Source: Flectonema sp. DT1601
Taxonomy: Eukaryota
Length of the DNA: 64,000 nt
Assembly (NCBI GenBank): GCA_964019425.1
Contig: OZ025793.1
Span: 1,240,001 to 1,304,000, forward strand
Reading direction: 5' to 3'
Shown: positions 9,337 to 48,313 of the stretch, piece by piece
Layout of the letters: each line of letters opens with the position of its first letter
How positions within the stretch are numbered: the first letter of the stretch is position 1
The notes under the pieces: model-generated
The model's database searches: none
What the model was told of the DNA's origin: nothing
The model's input: only the letters and a program-made list of their open reading frames with translations
Position numbers and translations under genes: made by a program

Positions 9337-9585
9337 ATGTTTATTGCAATTAGTAAACTTAATTAACATTAGTTGTATGATATCTTAAATCCATTCGGTT
9401 CGTTTCTAAGAAGTCACTTACACTGAATTCAGTTTTAATTTTCAAAAGTGTCGCATCTTACGTTCGAAGAATAATTATTTTAATTTTCTCACAGGAAACA
9501 TGTGAAGAGCCAGTTTCTAGTAATAGTCAATCTGGTTGTTGATGTTGTTGACGTCATTTTGAATAACAGTTATCAAAAAAGTAAA

Positions 9586-15533: not shown

Positions 15534-15951
15534 GCATCAGTTTATGGTTTTTAAATACTTCGGAAGACATTGAAATTAATCGATATTTTCAATAAGAGGC
15601 TTCTTGTAGTTTTACCAACTGCTCTTTCTTGATTTCTGTTTCATTACACGTATTGCATTACACGATCATTTTCAATGACAGTATTTTGATTTGTTTCATT
15701 CATTCTTCTTTTTCTTTTTTTTTTTTTTTCCCGCCTCTTTTACTGGGAGGTTAGTGCTTCCGATTCCTCTCTTTTACAAACCAACAATTGTTATTCTTTT
15801 CGTGATATCTAATTGTTAAAAATACCTGTCGTGGAGTAGACGCTGTTCAACCCCACGCAGCAATTATAGAAATGATGACTATGAGTATAGACTTTGATCT
15901 TGTTTGAGTATTTTGTAATTTATATTTTTTCAGGTCACAAGTCAGTTTAGA

Positions 15952-22355: not shown

Positions 22356-23688
22356 TAGGTCACGCAATCACACATAACAACACATGAAGTATTCGTGTGT
22401 TGGTATTGCGACTGTCGCTTGTCTTCCCAATTCAACTCGCAGATACCTAACACCTCTTCGAAGTATCGATTACGTGTAAATTAACTACAATAAGAAAGAA
22501 GACGATGATGAGTGTCGCTACGTTTATTCAATCAAATATATAAGATAATGTTCCCATCACGTTGTGTTTGTTATCCTTGTCTACCTGACTACTATATTTC
22601 TATAAACTCTGAAGAGAGCTTTAGTACTTTGTAATCACATCAAATTATTTCACTAGTATTCATCATAACAAAACTTGTTGAGAGAGTGCTGAGCGTCTGA
22701 TGACTGGATACCCACAACTGGGACTTTATATAAGAAAGAAAAGAAAAAGAAAAATCAGTGTGCGAGTACGCAGTAAATAATACGAGCAGACTTTATATTA
22801 TTACTTACTCGGCATTTTATTGTCTTGAGTTCTTAAGACCTGCTGTTCGACACGTTTTCAACTTAAACAATCAAATAAAAAAAAATATTTTAATAAAATA
22901 GTTTATTCTACAAACAAACTCTCATAAGTCTGATATTTCACTTTGCTGAGTATTCTTATGTTTAGATATGGTGAATTCTTTGTGTGGAGAGCCTTATTTC
23001 TTTTTTGTGAGTGTTGATCTTTGTGTCATCCAGGTGTTCTGACTGTAAAAGAGATGACTCTCTTTGTCGAATAACGAGTGTGTTTTTTTTTTTTTTTTTT
23101 TTAACCATTTCATGCAGCAAGACCGCGCAGCAAAACGAAGTATCAAGCAACATGAAAAATCCAGTTTTTTTTGGAACCAGTAATTTGTTGTTGTCGTTAT
23201 TGCTATCGTACAAGGCTGAAGTGCTTCCGTTAGTAGTACAGCAGTCGGCGTGGACTGACTTTTTATTTTTGTCTAATTAATTTCGCTATCAATGTTACTG
23301 CATTGAAACTCTTTTGATAGGTGACTAACTCTTGGCACGGGTCAGCTTTCACAAACTCGACTTCTTTTCTTTCAGTGAGTCATTCAGCTATTTTCTTGCT
23401 TTTTTTTGTAATTGTTTAACAGTGGCTTTTTATCTCATTCACTTAGTCGCTCACTCACACTTCACCGCGGCTTCAATACAGCTGTTAGCCAGCCAAGTGC
23501 TTTTTTTGCCTTCAGTTTCCTGCCGAGCTTTGGTTTATTTTTCTTAAGCAGTAACTTATTTTCTTTTTTCGCTTCTTTCCTTCGACAAACTAAGATTTTT
23601 CTTAAAAAAAAGAGTATTCTCGAAAATTACAAAATGTTAAAGGTTATTTCTTTTCTACAGGACGACGTTCCGTCATCTTTGACATAAG

Positions 23689-26600
23689 ATGCGCCGCATC
23701 GTTGGATCGGGGATAGCAATCTCATCATCTACTACTCGGACAGTCAGATGTTGTAAACTCCGAAGAGATCTTGAACAAATGCTTGGCGATGCAGCAAAAG
23801 AAGCCACAACGAACCCGCTCCCAATTGACATTAGGAAGGAAAAAGCTGAACATTTTCGGGAATTGAAAGCATCTGGAGCTACGGTGACAAAAAAAGGATC
23901 TAACCAAGCTTTAGATAAATTACTTAATATGGTCAGTGGCGGAGTTGCCTGGCCAGACCCAACTAAGAAAGTATCCGCTGATGACCTTCCTTCATTTATG
24001 AAACACGCAACCGATCCATCTCAGCCACTCGCTGACTCAATGGGGATGGAAGCTCCGTTGCCTGAGGAAGAGATGCCAGACTTTCTGAAGAAAGGTAAAA
24101 AGACAAAGTCGGTGAGTAGTAAAGATGATTCCCCATCACAAAAACAGCCGCAACAAAAACGCGACACGTCTAAACTCCACTCGCTTTCGGTACCTGGAGG
24201 AGAAGAAGAAGAGGAACCTGAACTCGAGCCCATCCCCGTCCGCCGAACAGAAACATCTGTTAGTCGCAATCGGGAAAATGTCAAAGCTGCTGATATTTTG
24301 AAAAATAAAAACACTGAACCCTTTATAAAGAATGATGATTCTGAGCTCCCAGACTTCTTAAAAGGAGATCACCCACCAAAGATTCCAAGCGGCAAATCGG
24401 AGAGCAAGCGGAGAGCACCTTCGAGCCCGCAAAAAAATGGCGAGCCGAAGCCAGAAGTGACAAGCGATAACAATAATAACGATGATGATTTGCCAGACTT
24501 TCTTAAAGCAAACGAAGGAAAGCGGCTATCAAACGAGCAGCCTGAAGACTCCGACGCTGATCTTCCTGAATTCCTAAAACCGAAAACATCAAAACAAAGT
24601 GAAGCTATTGAAGACGATGATGACCTCCCTGACTTTTTAAAACCTCAGAGTGCCTCACGGCAAACCCCAAAGAAGGCTGCACTGTCTGCAGGCGAACAAA
24701 TGCAAGACAGCGACGACCTTCCTGATTTCCTAAAACCTCAACAGACTTCATCAACGAGACAATCCGAACCTGCATCGACGGCGCAAGATAACGATAGCGA
24801 CCTTCCAGATTTTTTAAAGCCGCAGCAAAATGATTCGCAGTCTCCGGAAAGAATCGACAACTCTGACGACGATCTTCCCGACTTCCTGAAGCCCCAGAGC
24901 AATTCGACTCAGGTTGACTCTACGAAACAACCACATCAAAAAACTTCTGAAAGACCTGTGAGGCCATCTGCTGACATACCAAAGCAACAGTCGGAGGCGA
25001 ATAAAAGCATCGACAACTCTGATGACGATCTTCCTGATTTTCTGAAGCCTCAGCAACAAAGCACTTCACCACCAACCAAAAGCATCGACAACTCTGATGA
25101 CGATCTTCCTGACTTTCTGAAGCCTCAGCAGCAAAGCACTTCACCACCAAAGAAAAGCATCGACAACTCTGACGACGATCTTCCCGACTTCCTGAAGCCC
25201 CAGAGCTATTCGACTCAGGTTGACTCTACGAAACAACCACAGCAAAAAACTTCTGAAAGACCTGTGAGGCCATCTGCTGACATACCAAAGCAACAGTCGG
25301 AGGCGAAGGAAAACATCGACAACTCTGATGACGATCTTCCTGACTTCCTGAAGCCTCAGAGCAATTCAAGTCAGCAAAAAACTTCTGTAAGACCTGTGAG
25401 GCCATCTGCTGACATACCAAAGCGACAGTCGGAGGCGAAGAAAAGCATCGACAACTCTGATGACGATCTTCCCGACTTCCTGAAGCCCCAGAGCAATTCG
25501 AGTCAGGCAGACTCCACGAAACAACCACAGCAAAAAACTTCTGAAAGACCTGTGAGGCCATCTGTTGACATACCAAAGCAACAGTCGGAGGCGAAGGAAA
25601 ACATCGACAACTCTGATGACGATCTTCCTGATTTTCTGAAGCCTCAACAACAAAGCACTTCACCAACCAAAAGCATCGACAACTCTGATGACGATCTTCC
25701 TGACTTCCTGAAGCCTCAGAGCAATTCAAGTCAGCAAAAAACTTCTGAAAGGCCTGTGAGGCCATCTGCTGACATACCAAAGCAACAGTCGGAGGCGAAG
25801 GAAAACATCGACAACTCTGATGACGATCTTCCTGACTTCCTGAAGCCTCAGAGCAATTCAAGTCAGCAAAAAACTTCTGTAAGACCTGTGAGGCCATCTG
25901 TTGACATACCAAAGCAACAGTCGGGGGCGAAGGAAAACATCGACAACTCTGATGACGATCTTCCTGACTTCCTGAAGCCTCAACAACAAAGCACTTCACC
26001 AACCAAAAGCATCGACAACTCTGATGACGATCTTCCTGATTTCCTGAAACCTCAGAGCAATTCAAGTCAGCAAAAAACTTCTGAAAGACCTGTGAGGCCA
26101 TCTGCTGACATACCAAAGCAACAGTCAGAGGCGAAGGAAAACATCGACAACTCTGATGACGATCTTCCTGACTTTCTGAAGCCTCAGAGCAATTCAAGTC
26201 AGCAAAAAACTTCTGAAAGACCTGTGAGGCCATCTGCTGACATACCAAAGCAACAGTCAGAGGCGAAGGAAAACATCGACAACTCTGATGACGATCTTCC
26301 TGACTTTCTGAAGCCTCAGAGCAATAATAATTCGAGTCAGGCGGAGTCCGCAAAACAACCACAGCATCGATCAGAACAAGAGAATATTTCGGATGACCTT
26401 CCTGACTTTCTGAAACCCCAAACAGGAAATCATTCCAATAAAGATGATAACAATGATGATTTGCCTGACTTCTTGAAACCTTCAGCGGGTAAGTCAGTCC
26501 CCGCTGAATTGAATACAGAAGAACTACGAGAGGAAAGTAACCATAACTCAGATGATCTTGCTGACTTGCCTTTACCGAAATCGTCGTCCAGACCAGTTCG

Positions 26601-28603
26601 ATCTGCAACAGAACCAACTGAGCAAGATACACTAACCAGAGACGATGACGATCTGCCTGACTTCTTAAAACCTTCGCCATCAAAGGACGCAAAGCTGCCG
26701 GAGTTCTTGAAACCAAAACCGAAACCGAAGCCCGTCTCGGATATCGATTTGGGTGACGAGCTTCCGGATTTTCTAAAACCGCAATCACAACGACGCGATT
26801 CTCAAAGAGATGACCCACCAGAGTTTATTAAGAATGATCCGCATAAGCTTCCGGATTTCTTACAGCCACCGTCTGATGTGATAAAAACTGTTAAAGAACA
26901 GTCTGAAGAAAAGACAGAAGACAAAAACCTACCGGACTTCTTGAAGGGTGCAGGAGTACCTCCGAGGGAAGTTCCTGCGGCGGGTTCTTTATTTGAAGAG
27001 GAAACTGATTTACCGGAATTCTTGCAGCAGGGGAAAGCTCCCCCAACTGATTTCGGGAGCACCTCATCAAGGGATGATAAACCGTTTGGCGAGTTTGGTG
27101 TTCAAGCCAACCCCACTATTCCACCGGAATCAAAGAGCACCCCTCCGTACACTCAGAAGCAGGACGACAGCGATTCAGATTTGCCTGAATTTCTGCGTGG
27201 CTTTAGTAAGAATTTGGAACGCACCGAACAAAAGCTTCCTGAGTTTCTTCGTGAAATTGAGTACAAGGAACGCCGTCAACCAGTCCGCGACCAATACTCA
27301 CCACCAGAATATGTTAAAGACTATCGCTACCCACTGACTACTGGTCTTTCAACTGAAAAGACTTCTGGCATAGTTGTGTTGGACGCAATTACCTGTGAGC
27401 CTAAGGACGGAAAGTCTTGGGAAGGAGTGAAAGGAGCGATCTCGTGTCACAGGGGGAAAGTTGCTTTTGGAGTAGAAATTCTGTGGGGAAGACTCGCAAG
27501 AGTTGGATGGAGTGCTGAAGGCTCATCGCTTACATTGGGAAGTGACTCTAAATCATTCGGCTACGGTGGAACTGCTAAGAAATCTCACGATGACAAATAC
27601 GAAGACTATGGAATCACTTACAGTGCTGGTGATATTGTTCATTGTTTGATAGACTTCGATGCAAAAGAGATTTCTTTCACTGTTAACGGAGAAAATCAAG
27701 GAGTTGCATACACTATTCCACCAGGTATCAGGAATTCGTCTTTCACTCCTCATGTTTTGACGAAAAGTGCTCGTCTGAGACTCTTCTTTGGCGATCAAAA
27801 ACAATCACCTCCTGACGGTATGTCACTCGTTACTTTTATCTATTTTGATGTTTTGTATTTTTGTACGGCAACTTTAATTATATCACTGGACTTGTAGAAA
27901 ACATGAATCCCAACACAGGATACGAATGGATAAGCACTGCTGGTAGTAAAACAGTAACACAACGTGTTGTGGATATTGGTAAGCAGAAGACATGCGCACT
28001 ATGTGGGCAGAGTCGGACACAACGGGACATGGAAGAGATGGGAGGTGGAAGTGGATTTTTTAGGTGTCAAGATGGCATGCAGAATGACAAATGCTCTGCG
28101 GAACGTCTCGGAAGGAGGGAAATCTCTGAAACACACACCCCCGTCGAAAAGAAAGAGAGGCCAATCGTTGAGATTACTGAAGCAGGTAAATTTGCTGAAC
28201 GCGCAGCGAACTCAATGTCGAGATCTTGGCAACGTTCGAAACCCACAAAATCAGGCGGAAGTGGAACATCTTGGAGAGACCGCGCATCGAGTATGTAATA
28301 ACATAACATTTCCAAAGGTAGTTAGTACATTATTTATCCACTAAATCAGGTTCCTCATCTGCGGTAGCAAAGCAACGATGCCGAGAATGTTGGACACTGG
28401 TCCCTGAATCGGAACTACTAACTGAAGGCAATGGTATCTTTTACTGTGACAGTAACAAGCCAAAGCCGTGCAGGTATGTCTCAATAATGTACCCGTTGTG
28501 ACACCCGTTGTAACAATTTCAAGAAATAATAAACAGCGAAAAGAGTGGAGAAGAAATAGCGAAGGAAACGAAGGACTTCACGCGATCAATGGTAGGCTGG
28601 TAG
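23689..28603 (+). CDS. repeat-rich protein with SPRY domain (hnRNP-U/DDX1 type) and two C-terminal Cys4 fingers; introns 27818-27918, ~28291-28349, ~28474-28536
   Basis: RVGWS...LGSDSKSFGYGGTAKKSH...YGITYSAGDIVHCLIDF; in-frame splicing gives PPDGYEW; CALC..C..C and CREC..C..C. Confidence 0.8.
24850..26330 (+). repeat. complex coding tandem repeat (IDNSDDDLPDFLKPQ core with alternating spacers)
   Basis: ATCGACAACTCTGATGACGATCTTCCTGACTTCCTGAAGCCTCA recurs more than ten times. Confidence 0.95.
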
Positions 28604-29987: not shown

Positions 29988-30336
29988 AGAGTGAATATAA
30001 GAATGAACATCCCAACCTGATTAATATACTACAATAACTTCCCTCTCTTATGTCTTTTTTCTTTTAAGTATGAGACCAATTTTTTTTGAAATATTCCATT
30101 CTCGTTCCTTCGTGAATATTTTTAATATCGAGTGAACATGTCGTGTTTTGGATCTCGTACGTCGTCCGACCGAGTTTAACACTTGGTTGTTGTCAGTTGC
30201 TAAGTGTTTCCTGAGTTTCAACATCGTTCCCTCACAGATTACCGTTGTCCATGATTACAAAGACACGAGGCTGAGTTCATGTGTTTCTGAAGGACTGTTT
30301 TTTTTTACCTTCTTCCACAGGCATCATTGACAGCGA

Positions 30337-31353
30337 ATGAACTCAGAAGAATGTAAGTGCCCACTGTGCCATGACTTGTTACTGAATCCTGTAGTCTTGC
30401 CGTGCGGGCATGTATTTTGTAGAAGATGTGCGATGGATGTTGATTGCCACTCGAAACAAGAGATGCCTAAATGTCCTGTGTGTAGACGAGTTATGATGTC
30501 AACGGTAATGCCTGAATGTACATTACTTACTGCTTTAATAAAAAGAGCTTACCCGGAGCTGCATCAGCAGCGACTCGAAGAATTAGCTGCGGATGGTCCC
30601 AATGAGCAACTGGAGCGAGCAACAATACCAATTTTTGTACTGGACGCGACACTCCCAAAGGAAGAGAGATATCTGCATATATTTGAAGAGCGATATCAAA
30701 TTATGATGAGACGGGTTCTAGAAGGAGGCAGATGTGCGAAATTCGGAATGAAAGCACAAAGCGAGCGAACTGGCACCGAAGTAGAAATAATTGAATGCCG
30801 ACCCCAACCCGGAGGACGCATGAACATGAAGATAATTGGAAGACGTATATTCACCATCCTCGAGGAAAGCATGACAGATGGGTACATAACTGGGACTATT
30901 GAATACAGGAAAGATTTTACGGATAATACTTCGTCTGCGGCCCCTGGGCTTTCTGATAAAATCGATACTTGGACTCAATTAATGACTTCAGGACACTGGA
31001 TATCACCAGTACAGCTCAGTACCATAAAACAATCCCTGGGTCCAATCCCACATTCGCAGTATGAAGTAGCAACCTGGATTGGTGTCTTACTCAGCCACCG
31101 CGGACCAATGGGAGATCCATCCCTTAAAGCCCGCTTGATATCTGCAACTCCTTCGGAGTGGTACCAAATTTCAACTTCTGCATTAGATAGATCGATTACT
31201 ACGCTGCAATCGGGTAATCACACTTCGTGGGCCCAAATCAGCCGCTTTTATTACCGCTACCCAGCTTTGTCTCAATACCTTCCTATACTATTAGTTCTGT
31301 TTCTGCTGCACTTCTTTGTTCACGGGGACAGTGATATCACTGATCCAGAGTAG
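30337..31353 (+). CDS. RING finger plus LON substrate-binding domain protein (LONRF-like) with C-terminal TM segment
   Basis: CPLC..PCGHVFCRRC..CPVCR; LHIFEERYQIMMRR; GRRIF. Confidence 0.88.
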   Translation: MNSEECKCPLCHDLLLNPVVLPCGHVFCRRCAMDVDCHSKQEMPKCPVCRRVMMSTVMPECTLLTALIKRAYPELHQQRLEELAADGPNEQLERATIPIFVLDATLPKEERYLHIFEERYQIMMRRVLEGGRCAKFGMKAQSERTGTEVEIIECRPQPGGRMNMKIIGRRIFTILEESMTDGYITGTIEYRKDFTDNTSSAAPGLSDKIDTWTQLMTSGHWISPVQLSTIKQSLGPIPHSQYEVATWIGVLLSHRGPMGDPSLKARLISATPSEWYQISTSALDRSITTLQSGNHTSWAQISRFYYRYPALSQYLPILLVLFLLHFFVHGDSDITDPE

Positions 31354-32682: not shown

Positions 32683-32812
32683 AGGGAGAATAAGGCCTTT
32701 CGACATCAGTTTCTTGAAACTTAATTTTCGGTATTCAGTGTTTGTGCTTGTGCTTGTTGCTTGTCAGCAGGTTAAATTTCATTCTTTAACAGTTCAAAAA
32801 AATAGAAAAAAG

Positions 32813-32885
32813 TGGTCACAATGGGGCTCGAACCCATGGCCAATGGCTTATTAGACCAACGCTCTACCGACTGAGCTATGCGACC
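32813..32885 (-). tRNA. tRNA-Ile (anticodon AAT)
   Basis: Minus strand reads GGTCGCATAGCTCAGTCGGTAGAGCGTTGGTCT-AAT-AAGCCATTGGCCATGGGTTCGAGCCCCATTGTGACCA; cloverleaf with one anticodon-stem mismatch, followed by a T6 terminator. Confidence 0.9.
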
Positions 32886-33389
32886 TGTATTCAAGAAAAC
32901 TGTTTTTTTTTTTCTGGTTACACTCGTCTGTGCTACCAAACTCTTTGTTTTTGTTCTTTTCACTTCTATGTTTTGTCTTTCTTTAATACTTTCTTTTTAA
33001 CTTAAGTCTGACAAATTGGAAAACACGGGAAACATAGGTAGGCTCCGCCTGAGGACGTAAGAAGAGCGGCAACGGAAAAAATAAATGGTCACGCGTCCTT
33101 GAAATTGGATACATGAAGCTAATTCGGTTGCCATTCCTACCATCGATAAGGAAAACAAAGAGTCGAGCATATAACTAGAGCGGTGGTCAAAGACCACTTG
33201 AACAGCCCGAAGGCCTGCCCTCAAGAGAAATTTATAAGGAGAATAGGAGAAGAAGGAGACAGGAGTGTTGGATGAGACACTGCTACAACACCGAAGGTGA
33301 TGTGCAGTTACCCAACCAGGAGATGATTGATAATGATGAAAATACTAAAATAATAACAAATTGATATTGGCGACTACATGTCACCTACT

Positions 33390-36300
33390 TTACTTCCAAA
33401 GTCTAAGGTTAGATGTTTGTTCCATCCACCTTATGATCAACGCGAGTGATGGAAGCCACGCCAAAGTGAAGAGAGCTTCAAGGTTAGGAATTTCGTTGGC
33501 AATAATAAGTTCTCGATCGCGATCCCACTTGCCGGTCAGTGTTGAGAAGCCCAGGATTTTGAACCTGGCAGAGTCGAGTTTGGGAGATTGACATCCCTGC
33601 AGCAGGTGAACCTGTGAGGACGGTTCGCCACAAAATGGGCAGTCGATCGTCTTGCGCCAGTTCTGAATTAGCGGGTGACATCCTGTCCGGAAGTTCGCTA
33701 TCCGTATCTCGTCGGCTCTTTCCATCCCAGGAGGGTATTTAACGGAACGGCCTCTGATGAGGTGTTTGTAGCAGGTGTAACCACTCACGTTAAGCAGATC
33801 CTTTTTGATGCAGCGCTTCACATGTGATGATCGCGAGAAGTACGTGCCTTTGACTAGCACAGGTCGGATGTTCTTGTTGTGCGCTGCTTCCTTTGCAAGC
33901 GCGTCAACTTCATCGTGAAACTCGATTCCAATGTGCGAGGGGATGAATTGCAAATGCACTTTCATCTCACACATGCGCAGGTATTCCAGTATCTTGAGGG
34001 ACTCGGTATTCCTCTGTCTGCACCTTCCACCCAGCAGTTCATCCAGAAGGGATTTTGAGTCCGTGAATATCCTCACAGATTTCATTGAACGATCTTTGCT
34101 AAACACTGTTCTCAGATGTCTAGCCGCGTTCTTCAGAGCATGTTGTTCAGCCCTGTAGCTGCAGTCAGCTTGATAAAGCCTAGACGCGTAAGCAGATCGA
34201 AGGCCGCTACGTGACTTGGCAATATGAGCCGCACCGGCCGCGCCGGAAGCAGAGTAGGAGCCATCGCAGTTGATTACCATGTCGACAGGAGGCAACGTTC
34301 CAATGTACGACATGAACTTTTCTTTGTCCACCGCAGGGTTCGCGGACTTCGGAAATCCGCAGCTGTTGCTAATCCTAAGGTTCGTCGGAGATACCCAGGG
34401 TTCCATCGAGTCAGGCTGCACAAGGCACTGGCTTTCACGCTGACTATCAGTGCCAGGGATTAGGCCAGCCCAGTAGCTTTGTGTTGAGGCGAGTCTGTTT
34501 GTATTAGGTATCCAAGTCATGGCTTTATACCGGTAGTACGCAATTTTTGTCTGCTTTTCAATCTGACGTTTAAAAGGATACATGTCAGACTCCCACAACA
34601 GTAACTCTCTTGGCGTACACTTGCTGCATCCAGTAACCAGTCTGGCGACCTTCCTCAGTTCGAAGTCGATGCTGTCAACGCTGCTGCTTATCAGCCAACC
34701 AAAACTGTCAAGCGCATACGAGATTCTCGCGGTTACATAAAGGTTCTTAACCATGTTAAGAGTCTTGTAGTCCAGTTCGTACGGCTGGAGGCACTGCAGA
34801 AGTGATATCCCCCTCTTTAATTCTTCGTGAATCTTGCCTACTTGTTTGTGGAAGGTGAGCCTGTCGTCGATGTGAACCCCGAGGTATTTTACTGAGTCGA
34901 CTATCGGTAACAGAAAGGCAGTTTTGAATATTGTTCTCACAACCATAATGCTGTCCTCACGAACGACGTATTGCAGCATCAAGTTGTCGAGTTCTTCTTG
35001 TGTCTTGATTGGGATTCCTCCAATTTCAAGAATAGTTTCGCCACTTTGAAGCATGGGTCTGGGTGATTTGAGATTGATATGCTTCTCGATGTCACCATAG
35101 TCAAGTTTAAGCATGCGTTCCTCAACAGATCTAGAGAAAAGCAGTTCGCGATTACACGTATCGTTTAGTACTATGCCCTTCGAGCGAACATTCATCTTAA
35201 GCGCACAGGTTTTGGAGACTGATAAGGCCATGTCGTTTTCAAAACACCATTGATCCACTTTGTCGAGTACTAACTGAGCATTCGAAAGAGCTTCTTCCAT
35301 GTTTGATCCTGACACCACACATGCTGTGTCATCCGCATACAGAGCAGACGTCGTTGTTTCCTTCTCTAGTTCCAAAATCTTGCAGAGGTCATCAACGTAG
35401 ATAAGATAGAGAAGAGGACCCAGGATCGATCCCTGGGGAACCCCCTTAGCCAGAGTACGGAATTCGCTAAAGTAACCATTCGCTTCAACTCTAACCTTCC
35501 TGTTTGTAAGAAAGTCTGTGATCCATCTGATAATAACATTCGGAACACCCATCTTTACTAATTTTAATAAAAGTATCTTATGGTTGATCCTGTCAAACGC
35601 AGCAGTAAAGTCGAATGACAAGAACACTGATCTCTTTTCTTCCATGTGGCTCCTTACGATAGCATCTACTAGAACGGTGATCTGCTCGCAGGTATTTCTC
35701 CCCTTTCTGAATCCAGCCTGTAGTGGGCTGAGCGACGAATGTTTTGTGAGCCAGTGCATGAGTCGGTCATACACGAGCCTCTCCGCAAGTTTCCCAACAA
35801 CCGAGGTGAGCGTTATTGGTCTGAAACTCTTTAGTTCATTACGAGGTTTCCCTGCCTTGAACATGGGCTTGATTAGTCCCTGTTTCCATTGGTACGGTAC
35901 TTTTGAAGTCTTCCAGGAAGTGTTAATAATTCTCAAGAGGTATTCCACTGTTGCCGGAGTGAAGTTTTTGATCATCTCATTGTGAACTCCATCAGGTCCT
36001 GCAGCCTTGCGGGTCTTTAGGTTCTTAATCGCAGCTTTAATTTCAGCCATTGTGAAATCACAGCAAATATCTATTTCATTATCACCTTCTGAGAGTGCGG
36101 GGGCCTCTAGCGATAATATTTCCGATTTCGAGACAAACAGGTCCAAGAATGCTGATGGTAGATCGCAGTCAGAGATGTTGTTGACACTGATATCTTTACC
36201 GGCATCTTGCTGCAGTTCTTTGATCTTCTTAAACGCAAAGGCAAAGTTGTTACCCTTGTCAAGTTGATCACGTAGGTGGACACCCTTCGATTTGGTAGAA

Positions 36301-37301
36301 TCAGGGGTTGACGTCTTCCACTTTCGTCTCCGTTTCCCTTTGAAAAGGAGACGTCGACGAATGAATTTAGCCGCCACTTCATGCAGTATGTTGTTAAAGA
36401 GCTTGGCATTCGCAGTTGCATCAACGGAGAGTCTTGATTTTCTAATTCTCTTTTCGAGCATGGTCCCAAAGCAGTTCCAGTCCGTAGACTTGAAGTCCCA
36501 TACAACGCGTTTCTTCGAACCTATCGTGGCCCGTGCAAGTTGGCACATGGGATCCAGTACGGTGTAGAGAGGTCGATGATCTGACCCATGTTTATTATCT
36601 TCTTCAATTGCACTAAATTCTTCAAGAACCATCGAGTTTGAAAAGAATACTACATCTGGCGAGGTACCACCCCCCGGGACGTCAGGAAAAGGCCTTGTGA
36701 TTGACCCCATCTTGTTAGCAACCAGTAGATCATTTTGAGCTGCCCATGCATGTAGAGTTGAACCTGCTCTCGTCGATTTAAGTGACCACACCGGATGATG
36801 GGCATTAAAGTCACCCGCGACGATTGCTTTCGTTGAGACTGGAAGATCTGACTCTCTGATCATGCATCCCGGGGGAGCATAAACATTGATGATGTCAATC
36901 TTTCCACCTATGTTGACCTTCACGACCTCGACATCATTTAAGTGTGGCGGAAGCTCCATGTTCAAACGCTGCTGAGTGTGGCATTTTTTCACCATAGAAA
37001 TAACCCCTCCACCTCGTGTTGCCCTATCATTCCGATAGGTGAAATAGTCCGTGTGCGAAATTACATCATTCGTCCAAGTCTCCTGTAGGCACAGTACGTC
37101 AGGCGCATAGGCATTAAGCAGCTTGTGAATATAAGCGCCTTTGTTCCCCATCGATCGACAGTTCCAGCTCAGTAGAGATATGAGAGAGTTGTCAGGGCCA
37201 GGGTTGCGTTCGACGTCGCCTGCCTTTAGCAGCAGTTCACGAGCCGTATCCTTTTCCACAAGTGAGTTGGTCGGACTGAGTTCATCCTCATCGTCATCTA
37301 G
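33390..37301 (-). CDS. A1 ORF2: acidic linker, 2A peptide, AP endonuclease, RT, RNase H, C-terminal CCHC
   Basis: GDVERNPGP; SWNCRS, LQETW, GDFNAH, SDH; GVPQGSILGP, YADD; DGS, FTDS, HIGIEFHDEVD; CPFC..H...C. Confidence 0.95.
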   Translation of the reverse strand, partial: LDDDEDELSPTNSLVEKDTARELLLKAGDVERNPGPDNSLISLLSWNCRSMGNKGAYIHKLLNAYAPDVLCLQETWTNDVISHTDYFTYRNDRATRGGGVISMVKKCHTQQRLNMELPPHLNDVEVVKVNIGGKIDIINVYAPPGCMIRESDLPVSTKAIVAGDFNAHHPVWSLKSTRAGSTLHAWAAQNDLLVANKMGSITRPFPDVPGGGTSPDVVFFSNSMVLEEFSAIEEDNKHGSDHRPLYTVLDPMCQLARATIGSKKRVVWDFKSTDWNCFGTMLEKRIRKSRLSVDATANAKLFNNILHEVAAKFIRRRLLFKGKRRRKWKTSTPDSTKSKGVHLRDQLDKGNNFAFAFKKIKELQQDAGKDISVNNISDCDLPSAFLDLFVSKSEILSLEAPALSEGDNEIDICCDFTMAEIKAAIKNLKTRKAAGPDGVHNEMIKNFTPATVEYLLRIINTSWKTSKVPYQWKQGLIKPMFKAGKPRNELKSFRPITLTSVVGKLAERLVYDRLMHWLTKHSSLSPLQAGFRKGRNTCEQITVLVDAIVRSHMEEKRSVFLSFDFTAAFDRINHKILLLKLVKMGVPNVIIRWITDFLTNRKVRVEANGYFSEFRTLAKGVPQGSILGPLLYLIYVDDLCKILELEKETTTSALYADDTACVVSGSNMEEALSNAQLVLDKVDQWCFENDMALSVSKTCALKMNVRSKGIVLNDTCNRELLFSRSVEERMLKLDYGDIEKHINLKSPRPMLQSGETILEIGGIPIKTQEELDNLMLQYVVREDSIMVVRTIFKTAFLLPIVDSVKYLGVHIDDRLTFHKQVGKIHEELKRGISLLQCLQPYELDYKTLNMVKNLYVTARISYALDSFGWLISSSVDSIDFELRKVARLVTGCSKCTPRELLLWESDMYPFKRQIEKQTKIAYYRYKAMTWIPNTNRLASTQSYWAGLIPGTDSQRESQCLVQPDSMEPWVSPTNLRISNSCGFPKSANPAVDKEKFMSYIGTLPPVDMVINCDGSYSASGAAGAAHIAKSRSGLRSAYASRLYQADCSYRAEQHALKNAARHLRTVFSKDRSMKSVRIFTDSKSLLDELLGGRCRQRNTESLKILEYLRMCEMKVHLQFIPSHIGIEFHDEVDALAKEAAHNKNIRPVLVKGTYFSRSSHVKRCIKKDLLNVSGYTCYKHLIRGRSVKYPPGMERADEIRIANFRTGCHPLIQNWRKTIDCPFCGEPSSQVHLLQGCQSPKLDSARFKILGFSTLTGKWDRDRELIIANEIPNLEALFTLAWLPSLALIIRWMEQTSNLRLWK

Positions 37302-38960
37302 TCAGTTGAGATCAAAGTCCGAATCGTTACTTTCCATTTCTACGTCACGGTTTTTATCACTATCCTGCTTAGCAGCAGATTCGGTGGGCGGTGTTGTTGT
37401 TTGTGCTGTTGCTGGTGCTGGCGTTGGTGTTGGTGCTGATGGTGCTGGCGCTGGTGTTGGTGCTGATGTCGGCTGCTGAGTTGGCTGTTGTGGTTGAGGA
37501 GTTGTTTTTTGTCTCTTCAGGGTTCCCGTTAGTTTTTGAGCCGCGTCGCCTGGGTTGTAGGTTGGGCCTAGCGGTTTTCTGTCAGTTCGTTTAACTTCTT
37601 TGTTTATCACAAGGTATTCATTAGTACCTATGCTTATGAAGTTGGGCGGTTGAGATTTCGCAATTGCAACAATTGTAGTACTCCCTCCTTTATGGAAAGA
37701 AGCAACAACTGTGTGTTCCCAGTTGTGTGAGGACTTCAAGAAGTCGCTGATCTGCGCTGTCGAGTACTTACGAATCGCCATCGAATTTATAACAAACCTG
37801 TCGCCCGAGGGCAGTGCAGGCTTGATTGCCGCGTTGAGCTTAATGCTGACCCTGATATTACAGTCAGGGTGGACTCGGAGTCCAAAACAGCTTTTAAACC
37901 TGCACATGTAGAATTTTCCTTTGAATTCATCAAGTGCAGAAGTCTTGGACTTCGCTGCCAGGAAGCCAAGGTCGTTTTTGAATTGCAACGTTGGCCAAAC
38001 GTCACTTCCGTTCGACCAACTCGGGTTTCTGAAAAAGACATTCTTGGGTTTGTCAGTTTCGGGTTCGCTGTTGTTGTATTCCAGAACCTCGTGTACTTGG
38101 TTTCTGGGGACTCTGAAAGCCATCGAGGTGTGGGACTCGTTCTTTCTGTAGCTAAAGGGGTCCGCCTTTATCTTCAATTTCTTTAGAATATCGGTCGTTT
38201 TGACGGTCAATTCTTTCTCAGCTGATTTACCCCAGTCTTGGATGAATAGAACTGGGTTGGGAGTTGGAATCTGGTGGCTAGTTGCTGCTTTAGAAAAGTC
38301 GTCACCAAATACGTGCGTGTAAAATACGCGCCTGATCTCGCAGACGCCACCCTTTTTTATCACCGGTAATGCTACTGGAACGGTGCTCTTTGTGAGCGGG
38401 ATTTTGCTGATAGCAGCCCAACGGCCGCTCTTCTTTGTTTGGCGGAGTGCTTCTAAGTCTAGCTTCGAACGAACTAAAACAAGACCAGAGGTAAGGTTGT
38501 TTGTAGCATTAGCTGCTACGTCGTAACTGATGGTGGCCACAGCGCCTGCCCACGCACCGTGAATGTGCCACTCCGGGTAGCTTGCTTTTGCCTTTCCCTT
38601 CGTGGTTTGATTGTCCTTCATTGCTGTCGGTATCGGCAATGAGAACGGCTTCGTACTCGTTTGTTGATTAGAAGCTGTAGATGCTCCTGTAGTTGGTTGG
38701 TTGACACCTGTAGTTGAGGGTGTCGTCGCTTCTGCTGCCGTCGTCGCGGTCGCTTCCGTCCCACCACTCCCATCGAGTGTGTCCGGTGTCCTCCTCTTCA
38801 TCTCCGGGTTCCCACCTTCTGACCCAGCTACGAATTGAACGATCTCCATTAGGAGATTTGCCACCCTTCTTTCCTTCTCTTGCTCCGGGATCCCGTCTTC
38901 TCCCACTATCTTCAGGAGGTTTATTGCCTCCGATACCAACCTCTTCAGGTTGTCTCTCAT
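37302..38960 (-). CDS. A1 ORF1 (552 aa from first ATG), ending in TGA-CTAG
   Basis: Open frame; its C-terminal half is conserved in copy A2. Confidence 0.85.
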   Translation of the reverse strand: MRDNLKRLVSEAINLLKIVGEDGIPEQEKERRVANLLMEIVQFVAGSEGGNPEMKRRTPDTLDGSGGTEATATTAAEATTPSTTGVNQPTTGASTASNQQTSTKPFSLPIPTAMKDNQTTKGKAKASYPEWHIHGAWAGAVATISYDVAANATNNLTSGLVLVRSKLDLEALRQTKKSGRWAAISKIPLTKSTVPVALPVIKKGGVCEIRRVFYTHVFGDDFSKAATSHQIPTPNPVLFIQDWGKSAEKELTVKTTDILKKLKIKADPFSYRKNESHTSMAFRVPRNQVHEVLEYNNSEPETDKPKNVFFRNPSWSNGSDVWPTLQFKNDLGFLAAKSKTSALDEFKGKFYMCRFKSCFGLRVHPDCNIRVSIKLNAAIKPALPSGDRFVINSMAIRKYSTAQISDFLKSSHNWEHTVVASFHKGGSTTIVAIAKSQPPNFISIGTNEYLVINKEVKRTDRKPLGPTYNPGDAAQKLTGTLKRQKTTPQPQQPTQQPTSAPTPAPAPSAPTPTPAPATAQTTTPPTESAAKQDSDKNRDVEMESNDSDFDLN

Positions 38961-39018
38961 AATTGCTTTTTCCTGTGAAACGTACCCACTGATTCTTACC
39001 AATATTAGGTTGCGAAAT

Positions 39019-39034
39019 CAATAAAGTACAGAAA
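39019..39034 (-). other. spliced-leader remnant at the 5' end of A1
   Basis: Reverse complement is TTTCTGTACTTTATTG, the 3' 16 nt of the Leishmania/Diplonema-type SL exon. Confidence 0.85.
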
Positions 39035-41755
39035 ACTGACGGTATTGGTTTCAACCAAACTTCTTATCGGAAAACGCGTTCTTGCCGGGAAAACATCCTA
39101 TATGTTACGGACAGACTTAGATTTCTTAAACACCAAAAAAAGTCAGCGGCCCTTGTTCTTCTTGATATCGAAAAAGCTTTTGATAGTGTGAACCATGATC
39201 TTCTCCTTCAAAGGATGGTAGATCTTGGAATACCAAAACATTTTATAGCCTGGATTCAGGCCTTTCTTAAAAAACGAAGAGCAGCGGTTGTTGTTAATAA
39301 TGAAAAAGGTTCTTACCACAATGTTTATTCTGGCGTTCCACAAGGAACAGTTTTGTCGGCTCTACTTTTTACTCTGTATATTGAAAAAGTCGCAGAAAGA
39401 CTAGATATTACGGTTGCTAAGTATGCGGATGATATTGCTTTTGTAGTTGATGATGAAGGGAAAGGTTTTACTTATCATTTGGCAAAAACGAAATATTTCT
39501 TTAATGAGATTGAAAAGGATCTAAACGAATTAAAATTAAAAGTAAGTTATGAGCCTGACAAAACAAAACTTGTGTATTATCCCTACTCCCCAAATTCCCC
39601 ACTACAAACACCTTTCACTTTTACTTCAAATTTAACAAAAAATATTGTTCCATGTGTTGATAGCGCCAAGCTTCTTGGGGTGATCCTTGATAACAAGCTC
39701 GATTGGAAACAGCATATCTCGTATATTTGTAGAAGAGTTAATCTTCGCTTAAGGTATCTGAAGCTTGTCGCATCAAAAGCATGGGGACAGTGTACTGCAA
39801 CTTTGCGTGAGGTGTATGATTTGTATATTCGACCTGTCATAACAAACTCGTGTGAAGCTTTTTATCCTGAAGTTAGGTATAAAAAGATTCACATGGACAG
39901 GCTTCTCTCTTTACACCTTAGGGGTGCGTGCTATGTCTTAGGTGCCTTACCACCAACAAGGGAAACAAGAGATAAGATCTTTTTTGAGGCACAACAACAA
40001 AGTATCAACACCCATTTGAGACTTGAAACTGGTAGATGGTTCGCCAAAATGGCGCGAATCACGTCCCCTTTATTAAATGTCTTTATTCCACCTGAAAGAA
40101 TATCCTCAACACCCATTGATTCTTTTACTCGTTTAGGAATGAATGTTCTGAAAGAACACAACCTTCTATCACTCAGTTTTGAGAAATATCCCATTTACGT
40201 TCATCCTCCATGGAGTTTTTCAAATGATTTCAATGTTTTTAAACCAGAAATGCATGTTAGAAAAAAAAAAGACAAAAAGAAAAATAAAAAAGCCTGTGAA
40301 GCTGTTCTTAATGAAATAAGGAAAGATTATGAACCAGTCTTAGAGGTATATACCGATGGTGCCGTTGTTGAAGAACGCGGTGCTGCGGGTGTGTACATCA
40401 TAGACAGCGAAGGAAATGAATTTCTCACAAACAAAAGTGAAGCAGGAATAATCTGCACCTCTTTTAGGGCTGAAATGATGGCGATCAAAAACGCTTTTGT
40501 TTTACTTTTTAAGGAATTTGAACCGCCGGAAAATGCGTCAGTTTTATTTGTGTCAGACTCCTCCAGTGCCTTGATGGAACTGGAAAAAGGGGGAACAAAA
40601 CAGAAAACGAGACTAGGAAGCCGCATCTGGCAGTTTATTGAATTTTTCAACAATAAATTCAAAACAAAGTTTATTTTCCAGCATGTCTTTTCTCACTGTG
40701 GTATTGTCGGAAACGAAGAAGCAGACAAACTAGCCCAAAACATTTCATTAAAAAAAGATGAAGAAACCCTTTTAAAACAAAAAAAAGTTCCCATAGACTA
40801 CAGCACCCATGTAGCTAAACTAAAACACAGAATAAAAGAAAAATTTGACCCCCGTCCTTTCCCATCTGAAACTGAAAGAGCGGAAGAAATTCTGATTTCA
40901 CAACTCAGAATTGGCGACTGTAAACAAACACAAGGGAAATGTCCTAGGTGCAGAGAAAAAGACTCTGTAGAGCACCTGTTAGCAAAATGCTCAAAGTACA
41001 GAAAAGAGAGGAGGATGTATCTCCAGAAAGACTCTCTAACACAAGAAGAGTTAAAGGATTGTCTTTCCACTGTACAAGGACTAGAGAATGTTTTTCTTTT
41101 TATGTCATCTGCAAGAAGATATGTTTTTCCAGAAAAAGAAAAGAAAAAAGAAAATTTGAGTCAGGAAACAAAGAAAGAAAATGAAGAAAACGTTATCCTT
41201 CAACCCACACTTTTCAATACTGTGATTCAAAACTCACAACTGACTTGATTTCTCAAGCTTCCAAATTAACCAAAGTAGCACCTACACCATGGGGATGGTC
41301 TGATTGTTGATTGACTGATGGGCCGATATAGATTGGACACAGATCGAGAGTTTTTGAGAGATCTTAGATGAAAGTCCGCACCTTTCAGGCCATCCCCAAA
41401 AAGCACATAGCAGCTACAGCTATGTCAATTCAAATTGCGACGAGCTGCAACTTCGACATGAAGTTTTTCGTTATTGTTCTTACCTTCTCCACATATTTAC
41501 ATATGTGATAAGTATAAGTCATATCTTACGATTGACAATTCCTCCCCATAAATAAATTTCTTTTTATTATTTTATTTTACACCTGCCTTACTAACTTGGG
41601 GAGAAAGAAAGGAAGAACAATGGGCCTCTTATGAGGTGGGCAATTGCCCTGGACCCACATTAAATGTACGCGTGTTTTGCGTCAGCCCGTTGCTGTAGAA
41701 AAAGAAGAGACAGTTTCAGGTAGTAATGAAAAAAAAAAAAAAAAAAAAAAAAAAA
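39030..41755 (+). mobile_element. non-LTR retrotransposon family B, copy B1 (5'-truncated inside RT; RT-RNase H-CCHC open to 41248; 3' UTR; poly(A))
   Basis: GVPQGTVLS, YADD, YTDGA, HCGIVGNEEAD, CPRC..H...C; poly(A) run of about 27 nt; near-identical to B2. Confidence 0.93.
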
Positions 41756-42053: not shown

Positions 42054-45000
42054 TTTTTTTTGGTTACACTCGTCTGTGCTACCAAACTCTTTGTTTTTGT
42101 TCTTTTCACTTCTATGTTTTGTCTTTCTTTTATACTTTCTTTTGGCTTAAGTCTGACAAATTGGAAAACACGGGAAACATAGGTAGGCTCCGCCTGAGGA
42201 CGTAAGAAGAGCGGCAACGGAAAAATAAGTGGTCACGCGTCCTTGAAATTGGACACATGAAGCTAATTCGGTTACCATTCCTACCATCGATAAGGAAAAA
42301 ACAAAGAATCGAGCATATAACTAGAGCGGTGGTCAAAGACCACTTGAACAGCCCGAAGGCCTGCCCTCAAGAGAAATTTATAAGGAGAATAGGAGAAGAA
42401 GGAGACAGGAGTGTTGGAAGAGACACTGCGACAACACCGAAGGTGGTGTGCAGTTACCCAACCAGGAGATGATTGATAATGATGAAAATACTAAAAAAAT
42501 AATAACAAATTGATATTGGCGACTACATGTCACCTACTTTACTTCCAAAGTCTAAGGTTAGATGTCTGTTCCATCCACCTTATGATCAACGCGAGTGATG
42601 GAAGCCACGCCAAAGTGAAGAGAGCTTCAAGGTTAGGAATTTCGTTGGCAATAATAAGTTCTCGATCGCGATCCCACTTGCCGGTCAGTGTTGAGAAGCC
42701 CAGGATTTTGAACCTGGCAGAGTCGAGTTTGGGAGATTGACATCCCTGCAGCAGGTGAACCTGTGAGGACGGTTCGCCACAAAATGGGCAGTCGATTTTC
42801 TTGCGCCAGTTCTGAATTAGCGGGTGACATCCTGTCCGGAAGTTCGCTATCCGTATCTCGTCGGCTCTTTCCATCCCAGGAGGGTATTTAACGGAACGGC
42901 CTCCGATGAGGTGTTTGTAGCAGGTGTAACCACTCACGTTAAGCAGATCCTTTTTGATGCAGCGCTTAACATGTGATGATCGCGAGAAGTAAGTGCCTTT
43001 GACTAGCACAGGTCGGATGTTCTTGTTGTGCGCTGCTTCCTTTGCAAGCGCGTCAACTTCATCGTGAAACTCGATTCCAATGTGTGAGGGGATGAATTGC
43101 AAATGCACTTTCATTTCACACATGCGCAGGTATTCTAGTATCTTGAGGGACTCAGTATTCCTCTGTCTGCACCTTCCACCCAGCAGTTCATCCAGAAGGG
43201 ATTTTGAGTCCGTGAATATCCTCACAGATTTCATTGAACGATCTTTGCTAAACACTGTTCTCAGATGTCTAGCCGCGTTCTTCAGAGCATGTTGTTCAGC
43301 CCTGTAGCTGCAGTCAGCTTGATAAAGCCTAGACGCGTAAGCAGATCGAAGGCCGCTACGTGACTTGGCAATATGAGCCGCTCCGGCCGCGCCGGAAGCA
43401 GAGTAGGAGCCATCGCAGTTGATTACCATGTCGACAGGAGGTAACGTTCCAATGTACGACATGAATTTTTCTTTGTCCACCGCAGGGTTCGCGGACTTCG
43501 GAAATCCGCAGCCGTTGCTAATCCTAAGGTTTGTCGGAGATACCCAGGGTTCCATCGAGTCAGGCTGTACAAGGCACTGGCTTTCACGCTGGCTGTCAAT
43601 GCCAGGAAGGAGGCCAGCCCAGTAGCTTTGGGTTGAGGCGAGTCTGTTGGTACTAGGTATCCAAGTCATGGCTTTATACCTGTAGTACGCTATCTTGGTT
43701 TGCTTTTCAATCTGACGTTTAAAAGGAAGCATGTCCGCTTCCCACAGTAGAAGTTCTCTCGGTGTGCACCTGCTGCATCCAGTAACCAGCCTGGCAACCT
43801 TCCTCAGTTCGAAATCAATACTATCAACGCTGTTGCTTATCAACCAACCAAAGCTATCGAGCGCATAAGAGATTCTCGCAGTTACGTAAAGGTTCTTGAC
43901 CATATTTAGCGTTTTGTAGTCAAGATCATACGGTTGAAGGCATTGAAGCAGAGATATTCCCTTTTTCAGTTCTTCATGAATCTTAGCCACCTGTTTGTGG
44001 AAAGTGAGTCTGTCGTCGATGTGAACTCCGAGGTATTTCACTGAGTCCACGATTGGCAACAGAAATGCGGTTTTAAAACTGGCTTTCACCACCATCACGT
44101 TGTCTTCGAGAACAATATTCCGCAACATCACGTTGTCAAGTTCGTCTTGCGTTTTGATCGGAGTTCCATCAACCTCGAGAATAGTTTCGCCGCTTTGAAG
44201 CATGGGTCTAGAAGAAGTTAAGTTGATACTCTTTTCAATGTCACTATAGTCCATTTTGATAACGTTTTCCACAACAGATCTGGAAAATAGTAATTCGCGA
44301 TTGCAGGTGTCGTTGAGAATCGTATCCTTCGTACGGACTTTCATCTTAAGAGCACAGGTCTTTGAGACCGACAGGGCCATGTCGTTGTCAGAACACCATT
44401 GATCCACTTTATCAAGTATTATTTGAGCATTTGAAAGAGCTTCTTCCATGTTATGTCCAGATACTACACATGCTGTATCATCCGCATACAGAGCAGACGT
44501 CGTTGTTTCCTTCTCCAGTTCCAAAATCTTGCAGAGGTCATCAACGTAGATAAGATAGAGAAGAGGACCCAGGATCGATCCCTGTGGAACCCCCTTAGCC
44601 AGAGTACGGAATTCGCTAAGATAACCATTCGCTTCAACTCTAACCTTCCTGTTTGTAAGAAAGTCTGTGATCCATCTGATAATAACATTCGGAACACCCA
44701 TCTTTACCAATTTTAATAAAAGTATCTTATGGTTGATCCTGTCAAACGCAGCAGTAAAATCAAACGATAAGAACACCGATCTCTTTCTCTTCATGTGCAT
44801 CCTTACGACGGCATCTACCAAAACGGTGATCTGTTCGCAGGTATTTCTCCCCCTTCTGAATCCAGCCTGTAGTGGGCTGAGTGACGAATGTTTAGTGAGC
44901 CAGTGCATGAGTCGGTCATACACGAGCCTCTCCGCAAGTTTCCCAACAACCGAGGTGAGCGTAATGGGTCTGAAACTCTTCAGCTCATTTCGAGGTTTTC

Positions 45001-47357: not shown

Positions 47358-48313
47358 TTTTTTTCTTTTTTTTGGTTACACTCGGGGGCGTCATAGTGCA
47401 GTGGATGGGGTGGTGCCCCCGCACCCAATCGGCCTCGGTTCGAACCCCGCTGTACGCACCGCGCCTCACAGCGCAATCAGTTTCCGTGTCGCATCCCCCA
47501 TTGTCTCGAAAAAGTGAACGGCCACCCAGTAAGGGCAGCGCCTAAGCAATTATAGTAGTAACAAAAAGAAGGAGAAACACAGTAGTGAAACACTCAAAAA
47601 AAAAAAAAAAAAAGGTTACACTCGTCTGTGCTTCCAGACTCTTTGTTTTTGTTCTTTTCACTTCTTTGTTTTGTCTTTCTTTTATACTTTCTTTTGATTT
47701 AAGTCTGACAAATTGGAAAACACGGGAAACATAGGTAGGCTCCGCCTGAGGACGTAAGAAGAGCGGCAACGGAAAAATACATGGTCACGCGTCCTTGAAA
47801 TTGGACACACGAAGCTAATTCGGTTACCATTCCTATCATCGATAAGGAAAAACAAAGAATCGAGCATATAACTAGAGCGGTGGTCAAAGACCACTTGAAC
47901 AGCCCGAAGGCCTGCCCTCAAGAGAAATTTATAAGGAGAATAGGAGAAGAAGGAGACAGGAGTGTTGGAAGAGACACTGCGACAACTCCGAAGGTGATGT
48001 GCAGTTACCCAACCAGGAGATGATTGATAATGATGAAAATACTAAAAATTATAACAAATTGATATTGGCGACTACATGTCACCTACTTTATTTCCAGAGT
48101 CTAAGGTTAGATGTCTGTTCCATCCACCTTATGATCAACGCGAGTGATGGAAGCCACGCCAAAGTGAAGAGAGCTTCAAGGTTAGGAATTTCGTTGGCAA
48201 TAATAAGTTCTCGATCGCGATCCCACTTGCCGGTCAGTGTTGAGAAGCCCAGGATTTTGAACCTGGCCGAGTCGAGTTTGGGAGATTGACATCCCTGCAG
48301 CAGGTGAACCTGT
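47358..48313 (-). mobile_element. family A copy A3 (short 3' fragment) interrupted by a SINE
   Basis: 3' UTR and last ~75 codons match A1/A2. Confidence 0.9.
47385..47613 (+). mobile_element. tRNA-derived SINE with poly(A) and 11-bp TSD
   Basis: A box TAGTGCAGTGG, B box GGTTCGAACCC, A18 tail; GGTTACACTCG at 47374-47384 and 47614-47624. Confidence 0.85.

Follow-up and report, generated by a model that had tools for sequence, protein, structure and literature searches.

What is a stretch of nearly a hundred residues doing inside the reverse transcriptase of a long interspersed nuclear element (LINE), between two motifs that other LINEs separate with a short hairpin? The question is raised by a 64,000-nucleotide stretch of the Flectonema sp. 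DT1601 assembly GCA_964019425.1 (contig OZ025793.1, positions 1,240,001 to 1,304,000 of the forward strand), referred to here as the window and numbered from its first letter. The second open reading frame (ORF2) of a full-length LINE copy in the window, A1, is open over 1303 codons at 33390-37301 (minus strand), and its residues 704-800 (34902-35192, minus strand) form an insert between KTCALKM and VDSVKYLGV. Our preferred reading, to which we give a probability of roughly 0.6, is that this insert is a conserved domain under purifying selection, predicted to be PDZ-like, and likely a module for docking onto peptides, by which the reverse transcriptase would be tethered to a partner protein.

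The insert and its conservation

The KTCALKM sequence is reverse transcriptase motif 6 and occupies ORF2 residues 697-703, and 97 residues separate it from VDSVKYLGV, which is motif 7 (residues 801-809; 34875-34901, minus strand), marks the start of the thumb side and contains a D..YLG that is invariant in the family alignment. Measured from YADD to YLG, the distance in A1 comes to 151 residues, whereas the most common value in the set of proteins compared is 76 (46 proteins), so that the excess of about 75 residues claimed by a first-pass annotation of the window is borne out; the position given there for the domain, 34915-35135, lies inside the measured stretch, and the A1 peptide quoted, LQSGETILEIGGIPIKTQEEL, is present. 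The sample consisted of A1 and its best 120 reverse transcriptase relatives (121 proteins, 117 of them measurable by regular expression), and in 103 of the 117 the spacing is 69-83 residues. The eight clade members that the regular expression placed correctly have spacings of 135-151 residues, and two others that it misplaced, P0014 and P0016, were found by direct reading of both sequences to have the long spacing too. The insert is absent from about 100 other LINE reverse transcriptases, and the short hairpin that is canonical between motifs 6 and 7 of LINEs with an apurinic-type endonuclease (APE-type LINEs) is not present in A1 (151 residues versus the mode of 76). In the family B element of the same window (38993-41248, plus strand) the span between KT and LLG is only about 40 residues, in keeping with the short spacer that had been reported for it, and the strand that precedes YLG persists after the A1 insert, where FKTAFLLPIVDSVKYLG aligns with NIVPCVDSAKLLG of family B. 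The insert is thus confirmed as an observation.

The insert was recovered in nine relatives, P0002, P0003, P0004-P0006 and P0014-P0017, which are all of the close relatives found, and the trimmed inserts of these proteins are 16-74% identical to that of A1 in a whole-length alignment of 10 sequences. Alignment positions F7 and G39 are invariant, and L5, E40, I42 and L56 are nearly so. Four of the relatives, P0014-P0017, come from transcript assemblies of the diplonemid Flectonema neradi, and the nearest named relatives of the element are from a diplonemid protist. Because the insert is kept in all four of these transcripts, it is not spliced out and is not an intron, and its presence in the relatives means that its capture would be older than the split of these lineages. 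A metagenome scan with the insert alignment gave 74 pattern matches, of which none was confirmed by tblastn.

Within the window the insert is also found in a second copy, A2, at 44051-44341 (minus strand), where it is 75% identical to A1 over the insert and its flanks and where LQSGETILEVDGTPIKTQDEL, quoted earlier as the A2 counterpart, is located. A decayed relative at 63733-63768 (plus strand), previously placed near 63745, retains VNGKKMSTRSEF of the insert, followed by GCVVDDRLSF, a frameshift and LKRGIGLLK, which match the family sequence YLGVHIDDRLTF...LKRGISLL as remnants of motif 7 and the thumb; the tblastn match of P0015 to this copy is weak (E=0.034).

Comparison of the ORF2 sequences of A1 and A2 over 1304 positions shows 1214 identities and 90 differences, 28 of which lie within residues 704-791. 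Over the insert, synonymous divergence (dS) is 2.29 and nonsynonymous divergence (dN) is 0.17, giving a dN/dS of 0.074, compared with 0.119 for the entire ORF2, and the insert is under purifying selection, that is, constraint at the protein level. Synonymous divergence between the two copies is itself a mosaic, dS rising from about 0.06 at residues 961-1303 through 0.18-0.36 in the 5' half to 1.1-2.3 at residues 701-960. It is high across residues 651-950 and very low past 960, and because it varies in this way along their length, A1 and A2 are taken to be mosaics with differing histories; the pattern indicates recombination or template switching between subfamilies, and its peak has the insert at its centre. 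Inside the old block of high synonymous divergence, the protein changes faster in the insert (28 changes in 100 residues) than in the thumb (9 in 150). A linker under relaxed constraint was considered as the source of the amino acid divergence and was rejected, since that divergence falls in the block of saturated synonymous divergence (approximately residues 651-950) and reflects mosaic history.

Outside the clade, a long insert at the motif 6-7 site occurs in only one of the best 120 relatives, P0035, a distant LINE ORF2 of Logan source in which the spacing is 238 and about 160 extra residues at approximately 690-890 include LDGAKLAAVDDSLVDSKEKI-like stretches. The P0035 insert has no Pfam match at E<=10. 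Extra domains may have landed repeatedly at the motif 6-7 site.

Resemblance of the insert to PDZ domains

Profiles built from the insert were searched against 177,635 PDB sequences, using an alignment of 6 and then of 10 sequences. The PDZ tandem of aq_1964, a site-2 protease that is the A. aeolicus RseP homologue, was already on top with the 6-sequence profile (E=5e-4), for which 16 of the 21 matches at E<=10 were PDZ proteins, and it reached E=1.7e-7 with the 10-sequence profile, through two stretches with independent E values of 0.05-0.16. The larger profile also matched the LIMK2 PDZ domain in one stretch (E=2.9e-4, profile positions 7-82 against chain positions 19-99), a DegP chain (E=3.9e-4) and DegP-like proteases (1.2e-3), and among its 59 matches at E<=10 there were 49 with PDZ-bearing family names, 7 that were uninformative and 3 that were unrelated. 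The similarity of the profile to proteins with solved PDZ domains is therefore significant, and the HtrA/RseP flavour that had been recognized in the signature agrees with the best matches. Member by member, Pfam gave PDZ_6 in 4 of 10 inserts (best E=0.0016), PDZ_2 in 2 of 10 (0.018) and PDZ_Tricorn in 1 of 10, all below the gathering scores; for the A2 insert the weak matches were PDZ_Tricorn (0.042), PDZ_2 (0.047) and PDZ (0.13). An hhalign comparison with seven E. coli PDZ domains (two each of DegP, DegQ and RseP, and that of DegS) gave a probability of 68% and E=4.7e-5 over the central 41 columns.

The PDZ domains of HtrA, DegP and DegQ, and of the site-2 proteases RseP and aq_1964, are accordingly the closest comparators by profile, and HtrA/RseP PDZ domains share with the insert the pattern h-x-x-G-[DE]-x-I-h-x-h-[ND]-G-x-x-h-x-[ST]-x-x-[DE]-h. 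They differ from it in that only about 40 central residues align and the carboxylate-loop glycine is mostly absent from the insert, and also in context, the host protein here being a reverse transcriptase rather than a protease and the insert being internal to another domain rather than a terminal module. Canonical PDZ domains of the metazoan type (Shank1/3, rhophilin-2, CNK, Scribble) are also among the closest known systems.

Structure prediction points in the same direction. An AlphaFold2 model from the 6-sequence alignment with flanks had a predicted local distance difference test score (pLDDT) of 66 overall and about 80 in the core, and the model from the trimmed 10-sequence alignment had a mean pLDDT of 87.4 (at least 90 for 64 of the 89 residues) and a predicted template modelling score of 0.73. 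The confidently modelled PDZ-like core spans approximately residues 726-795 (34917-35126, minus strand), and the predicted fold runs through strands, a short helix, a strand pair carrying G-E-x-I-L...G, a long helix and closing strands, so that the model is a compact beta-sandwich of five to six strands with one short and one long helix. Every match listed by Foldseek against the PDB was a PDZ domain, for both models, and a structural scan of 48,161 chains likewise listed only PDZ domains, with 62-80 of the 89 residues aligned. The combination of AlphaFold and Foldseek that had been suggested as a check thus predicted a PDZ-like fold with PDZ-only neighbours, and it gave no E value better than 0.13. 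In the ESM Atlas the nearest named clusters were all PDZ (scores 0.92-0.89); for the N-terminal 38 residues alone PDZ was again nearest (0.82-0.75), scores that are uncalibrated for parts of proteins and serve as a lead only.

Conserved positions of the predicted core include G-E-x-I-L, seen in A1 within SGETILEIGG (35016-35045, minus strand), followed by [ND]-G or a variant of it and then by a leucine in the long helix. The first confident strand is L-x-F-x-[RK]-[ST] (L-x-F-x-R-S/T in A1, at 35127-35147), with phenylalanine in 10 of 10 sequences, leucine or isoleucine in 10 of 10, serine or threonine in 10 of 10 and a basic residue in 8 of 10, and in three of the ten (P0004-P0006) it reads R-L-G-F. 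The G-L-G-F motif (x-Phi-G-Phi) is the carboxylate-binding loop of PDZ domains, which opens the strand that pairs with the ligand, and the L-x-F strand resembles it; since hhalign left this strand unaligned, the assignment is a tentative reading of the sequence. In 8 of the 10 sequences the insert is acidic to neutral, with an isoelectric point (pI) of 4.5-6.5, a charge that does not suggest general nucleic acid binding.

Profile matches, sub-threshold Pfam matches, AlphaFold neighbours and language-model neighbours all agree in supporting the PDZ-like nature proposed by the first-pass annotation, and we consider it likely that the insert is a true PDZ-like domain of a divergent type rather than a textbook example. 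From the distant homology we infer that the domain was captured, and the module would have come from a PDZ-bearing gene before the subfamilies and lineages diverged; no PDZ donor gene was found.

The host element and its surroundings

Copy A1 extends over 32908-39029 (minus strand) and comprises a 5' untranslated region, ORF1, an in-frame ORF2, a 3' untranslated region and poly(A). Its 3' end was set at 32908-32916, where there is a run of 11 A, by blastn against A2 and a third 3' fragment, and family B homology begins upstream of it at 39030 in blastn comparisons within the window; with these limits, and with ORF1 and ORF2 as read here, the copy is full length and both frames are open. Endonuclease and reverse transcriptase domains in ORF2, an upstream ORF1 and an A11 end common to three copies are the features of an APE-type LINE.

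The endonuclease is of the apurinic type and lies at 36567-37172 (minus strand; residues 44-245), with Pfam matches to Exo_endo_phos (E=1.3e-12) and Exo_endo_phos_2 (E=1.8e-13). The fingers and palm of the reverse transcriptase up to motif 6 lie at 35184-35843 (minus strand; residues 487-706), with YADD at 35328-35339, and Pfam RVT_1 matches A1 ORF2 with E=1e-32 over profile positions 5-199 of 205. A phmmer search of residues 480-900 against the PDB matched L1 ORF2p and R2 chains, 12 of them at E<=0.001, in alignments that stop before the insert. An RNase H-like region at 33882-34280 (minus strand; approximately residues 1008-1140) is similar by tblastn to the RNase H region of family B; Pfam RNase_H is matched by the relatives P0015, P0017 and P0004 (E=6.6e-6 to 0.003) and has no match at E<=1 in A1 ORF2. 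Near the C-terminus, a Cys/His motif read from the sequence, CPFCGEPSSQVHLLQGC (33591-33641, minus strand), may be a zinc knuckle.

The upstream ORF1 (37305-38960, minus strand) has its ATG at 38960 and encodes 552 amino acids from this first ATG; searches with it gave no Pfam family at E<=1 and no PDB sequence better than E=0.81. In the ORF1 protein (ORF1p) an N-proximal stretch of low complexity, rich in T/A/P, is followed by a central region of some 300 residues and a P/T/Q-rich (also P/T/A-rich) tail, and the acidic C-terminus, ...DSDFDLN (..DVEMESNDSDFDLN), is kept in A2. Both reading frames share one frame, interrupted by a lone TGA (37302-37304, minus strand, in A1) that is followed by CTAG, an arrangement present in A1 (37194-37304, minus strand) and in A2 (46343-46453, minus strand). 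A 2A-like DVERNPGP (37194-37217, minus strand; ORF2-frame residues 29-36) occurs 28 codons past the TGA in A1 and the motif is also found in A2 and in P0003, the latter differing in having its own ATG ahead of the 2A motif. This arrangement suggests that ORF2 may be made by stop-codon readthrough followed by 2A "skipping", where we take TGA-CTAG to be a readthrough context and the octapeptide to fit the 2A consensus. Presumably the closest parallels are the ingi/L1Tc elements of trypanosomatids and the I-like clades, which would share the APE, reverse transcriptase, RNase H-like and C-terminal Cys/His regions, the poly(A) and a 2A-like DxExNPGP at the start of ORF2; no report of a PDZ-like insert in ingi/L1Tc or I-like elements was found in the literature searched.

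The second copy, A2, is a 5'-truncated element at 42054-47289 (minus strand; ORF2 at 42539-46450) that is 89.7% identical to A1 by blastn, and just upstream of it lies the third family A 3' fragment, of 700 bp and 96.6% identity (47614-48313, minus strand). These copies form part of a nest of LINEs that includes family B at 38993-41248 and 49907-53083 (both plus strand). The family B element that A1 abuts is 5'-truncated, and its 39030-39600 matches 51246-51816 at 99.3%. On its other side A1 lies just upstream of a tRNA-Ile(AAT) gene (32812-32885, minus strand), which begins 22 nt past the poly(A) end and has the same orientation; it is the sole tRNA gene of the window and the other two family A copies adjoin none, so this is a single case.

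In the first part of the window (1-31353) the long ORFs are all on the plus strand, uninterrupted as far as the listed stop-to-stop frames show, and they encode a PP2C protein with a BRCT domain (9484-10887), an Atg3-like protein (12332-13207), a SAM-domain protein (15919-17790), a SPRY protein (23683-27897) and a RING plus LON-N protein (30331-31353). This run resembles a unidirectional gene cluster, a trait of the Euglenozoa.

Possible roles of the insert

The position of the insert suggests how a peptide-docking module could act. In LINE reverse transcriptases motif 6 carries a conserved lysine and motif 7 (YLG) is the primer-grip region, and we take motif 6a of R2 to occupy the hairpin between the two. 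As R2 motif 6a is placed there, the insert would project toward the primer and target DNA, extending from the palm hairpin beside the primer grip on the side of the palm where primer and target DNA approach. Presented in this way, it could dock onto ORF1p or onto a host protein bound to DNA, through either a beta-strand of the partner or its free C-terminal tail, and such docking may help assembly of the ribonucleoprotein or choice of the target, uses that the first-pass annotation had also suggested. In two papers on R2, motif 6a is described as wedging into the upstream target DNA (PMC11601368; PMC11204384). The two features are alike as reverse transcriptase expansions projecting from the palm; motif 6a is a loop and the insert is a predicted folded domain of about 90 residues, and R2 has a restriction-like endonuclease with N-terminal zinc-finger and Myb domains where the element described here has an APE endonuclease.

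A number of results weigh against reading the insert as a PDZ-like peptide-docking module. At the sequence level, no Pfam PDZ model reaches its gathering score in any of the 10 members (the cut-off for PDZ_6 is 27 bits), the A1 insert has no Pfam match at E<=10 and the entire A1 ORF2 shows no PDZ domain. A phmmer search of the insert against 1.84 billion representatives found no PDZ protein, its five matches at E<=0.001 being four from the element's own family and one to a repetitive protein, P0010, and against PDB sequences it returned VP1 only (E=1.5). The hhalign match is confined to the central 41 columns and leaves out the N-terminal L-x-F strand, which HMMER also failed to align to the PDZ loop, and the glycine of G-L-G-F is missing in 7 of 10 sequences. 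The models were built on shallow alignments of 6-10 sequences, Foldseek gave no match at E<=0.001 (best E values 0.13 and 0.17, with template modelling scores of 0.25-0.51) and the structural Z scores are below 8. As to a ligand, the C-termini of ORF1 (..FDLN) and ORF2 (..RLWK) are unlike classical PDZ ligands, and ORF2 C-termini are not conserved among the relatives. Finally, the placement of R2 motif 6a between motifs 6 and 7 is a presumption.

Several of these points are shared by the main rival of the peptide-docking reading, which retains the PDZ-like fold and dispenses with peptide binding, so that the insert would serve as a larger version of motif 6a, bracing the target DNA, the template RNA or another part of ORF2, or making contact with one of them, during target-primed reverse transcription. 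The location of the insert, where the motif 6a loop of R2 is said in the cited papers to wedge into upstream target DNA, speaks for such a brace, as do the absent carboxylate-loop glycine in 7 of 10 members and the lack of a plausible C-terminal ligand in the element's own proteins, but a pI of 4.5-6.5 in 8 of 10 inserts is a poor fit for a surface that contacts DNA or RNA, and the most conserved surface-candidate residues would map to the strand that pairs with the PDZ ligand; we regard this alternative as possible and on balance unlikely. Somewhat more doubtful is the proposal that the insert is unrelated to PDZ domains and is a lineage-specific elaboration of the motif 6-7 hairpin, convergent on the common G-D-x-I-x-V-N-G pattern of strand, turn, strand and helix. 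The LIMK2 match, with E=2.9e-4, covers profile positions 7-82, several independent PDZ families were matched, the unbiased scan of 48,161 chains yielded PDZ domains only, over 62-80 of 89 residues, and the canonical strand before YLG is still there past the insert (FKTAFLLPIVDSVKYLG against NIVPCVDSAKLLG of family B), all of which speak against hairpin elaboration.

That the stretch is non-functional, whether as a retained intron, a decaying insertion or an assembly artefact, is scarcely credible: the two copies differ more here than anywhere else in ORF2, with 28 of the 90 amino acid differences, yet the stretch is in frame and stop-free in both, has a dN/dS of 0.074 where synonymous sites are saturated, persists in ORFs derived from transcripts and is conserved in 10 sequences down to 16% identity. 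An intron or junk DNA was thus rejected on the grounds of frame, dN/dS and transcripts. The peptide-docking reading could also be extended further, to a target-site tether within the polymerase that would hold a host protein, either chromatin-bound or Pol III-associated, by its C-terminal tail and so steer target-primed reverse transcription. This extension is drawn from the position of R2 motif 6a and from the full-length copy 22 nt upstream of the tRNA-Ile gene, and we put it forward as a speculative and rather improbable refinement.

The full-text literature searched, outside of which lay the supplements of PMC10161547 with their possible repeat-family lists, yielded no description of a PDZ or PDZ-like domain in any reverse transcriptase, those of LINEs included. 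The text of that diplonemid genome paper states that transposable elements were not rigorously characterized, and its sole mention of PDZ concerns an unrelated gene (PMC10161547). We place the element among the APE-type LINEs, from which it is set apart by a novel accessory domain whose position is also novel. Accessory domains of LINE ORF2 proteins are known to be gained at the ends or between the major domains, and a folded peptide-recognition module inside the reverse transcriptase palm, beside the primer grip, would if true be a new architectural solution. It would offer a handle on how a retrotransposon polymerase is coupled to its partners, whether ORF1p or host chromatin factors, and reverse transcriptase scaffolds that tolerate a docking domain at the motif 6-7 site may interest engineers of retroelement insertion tools. 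Should the insert act as a target-site tether, targeting of integration through a PDZ domain would be seen for the first time, as would a peptide-recognition domain lying within a reverse transcriptase palm. The reach of PDZ-like domains would be extended to the mobile-element enzymes of a little-studied group of protists.

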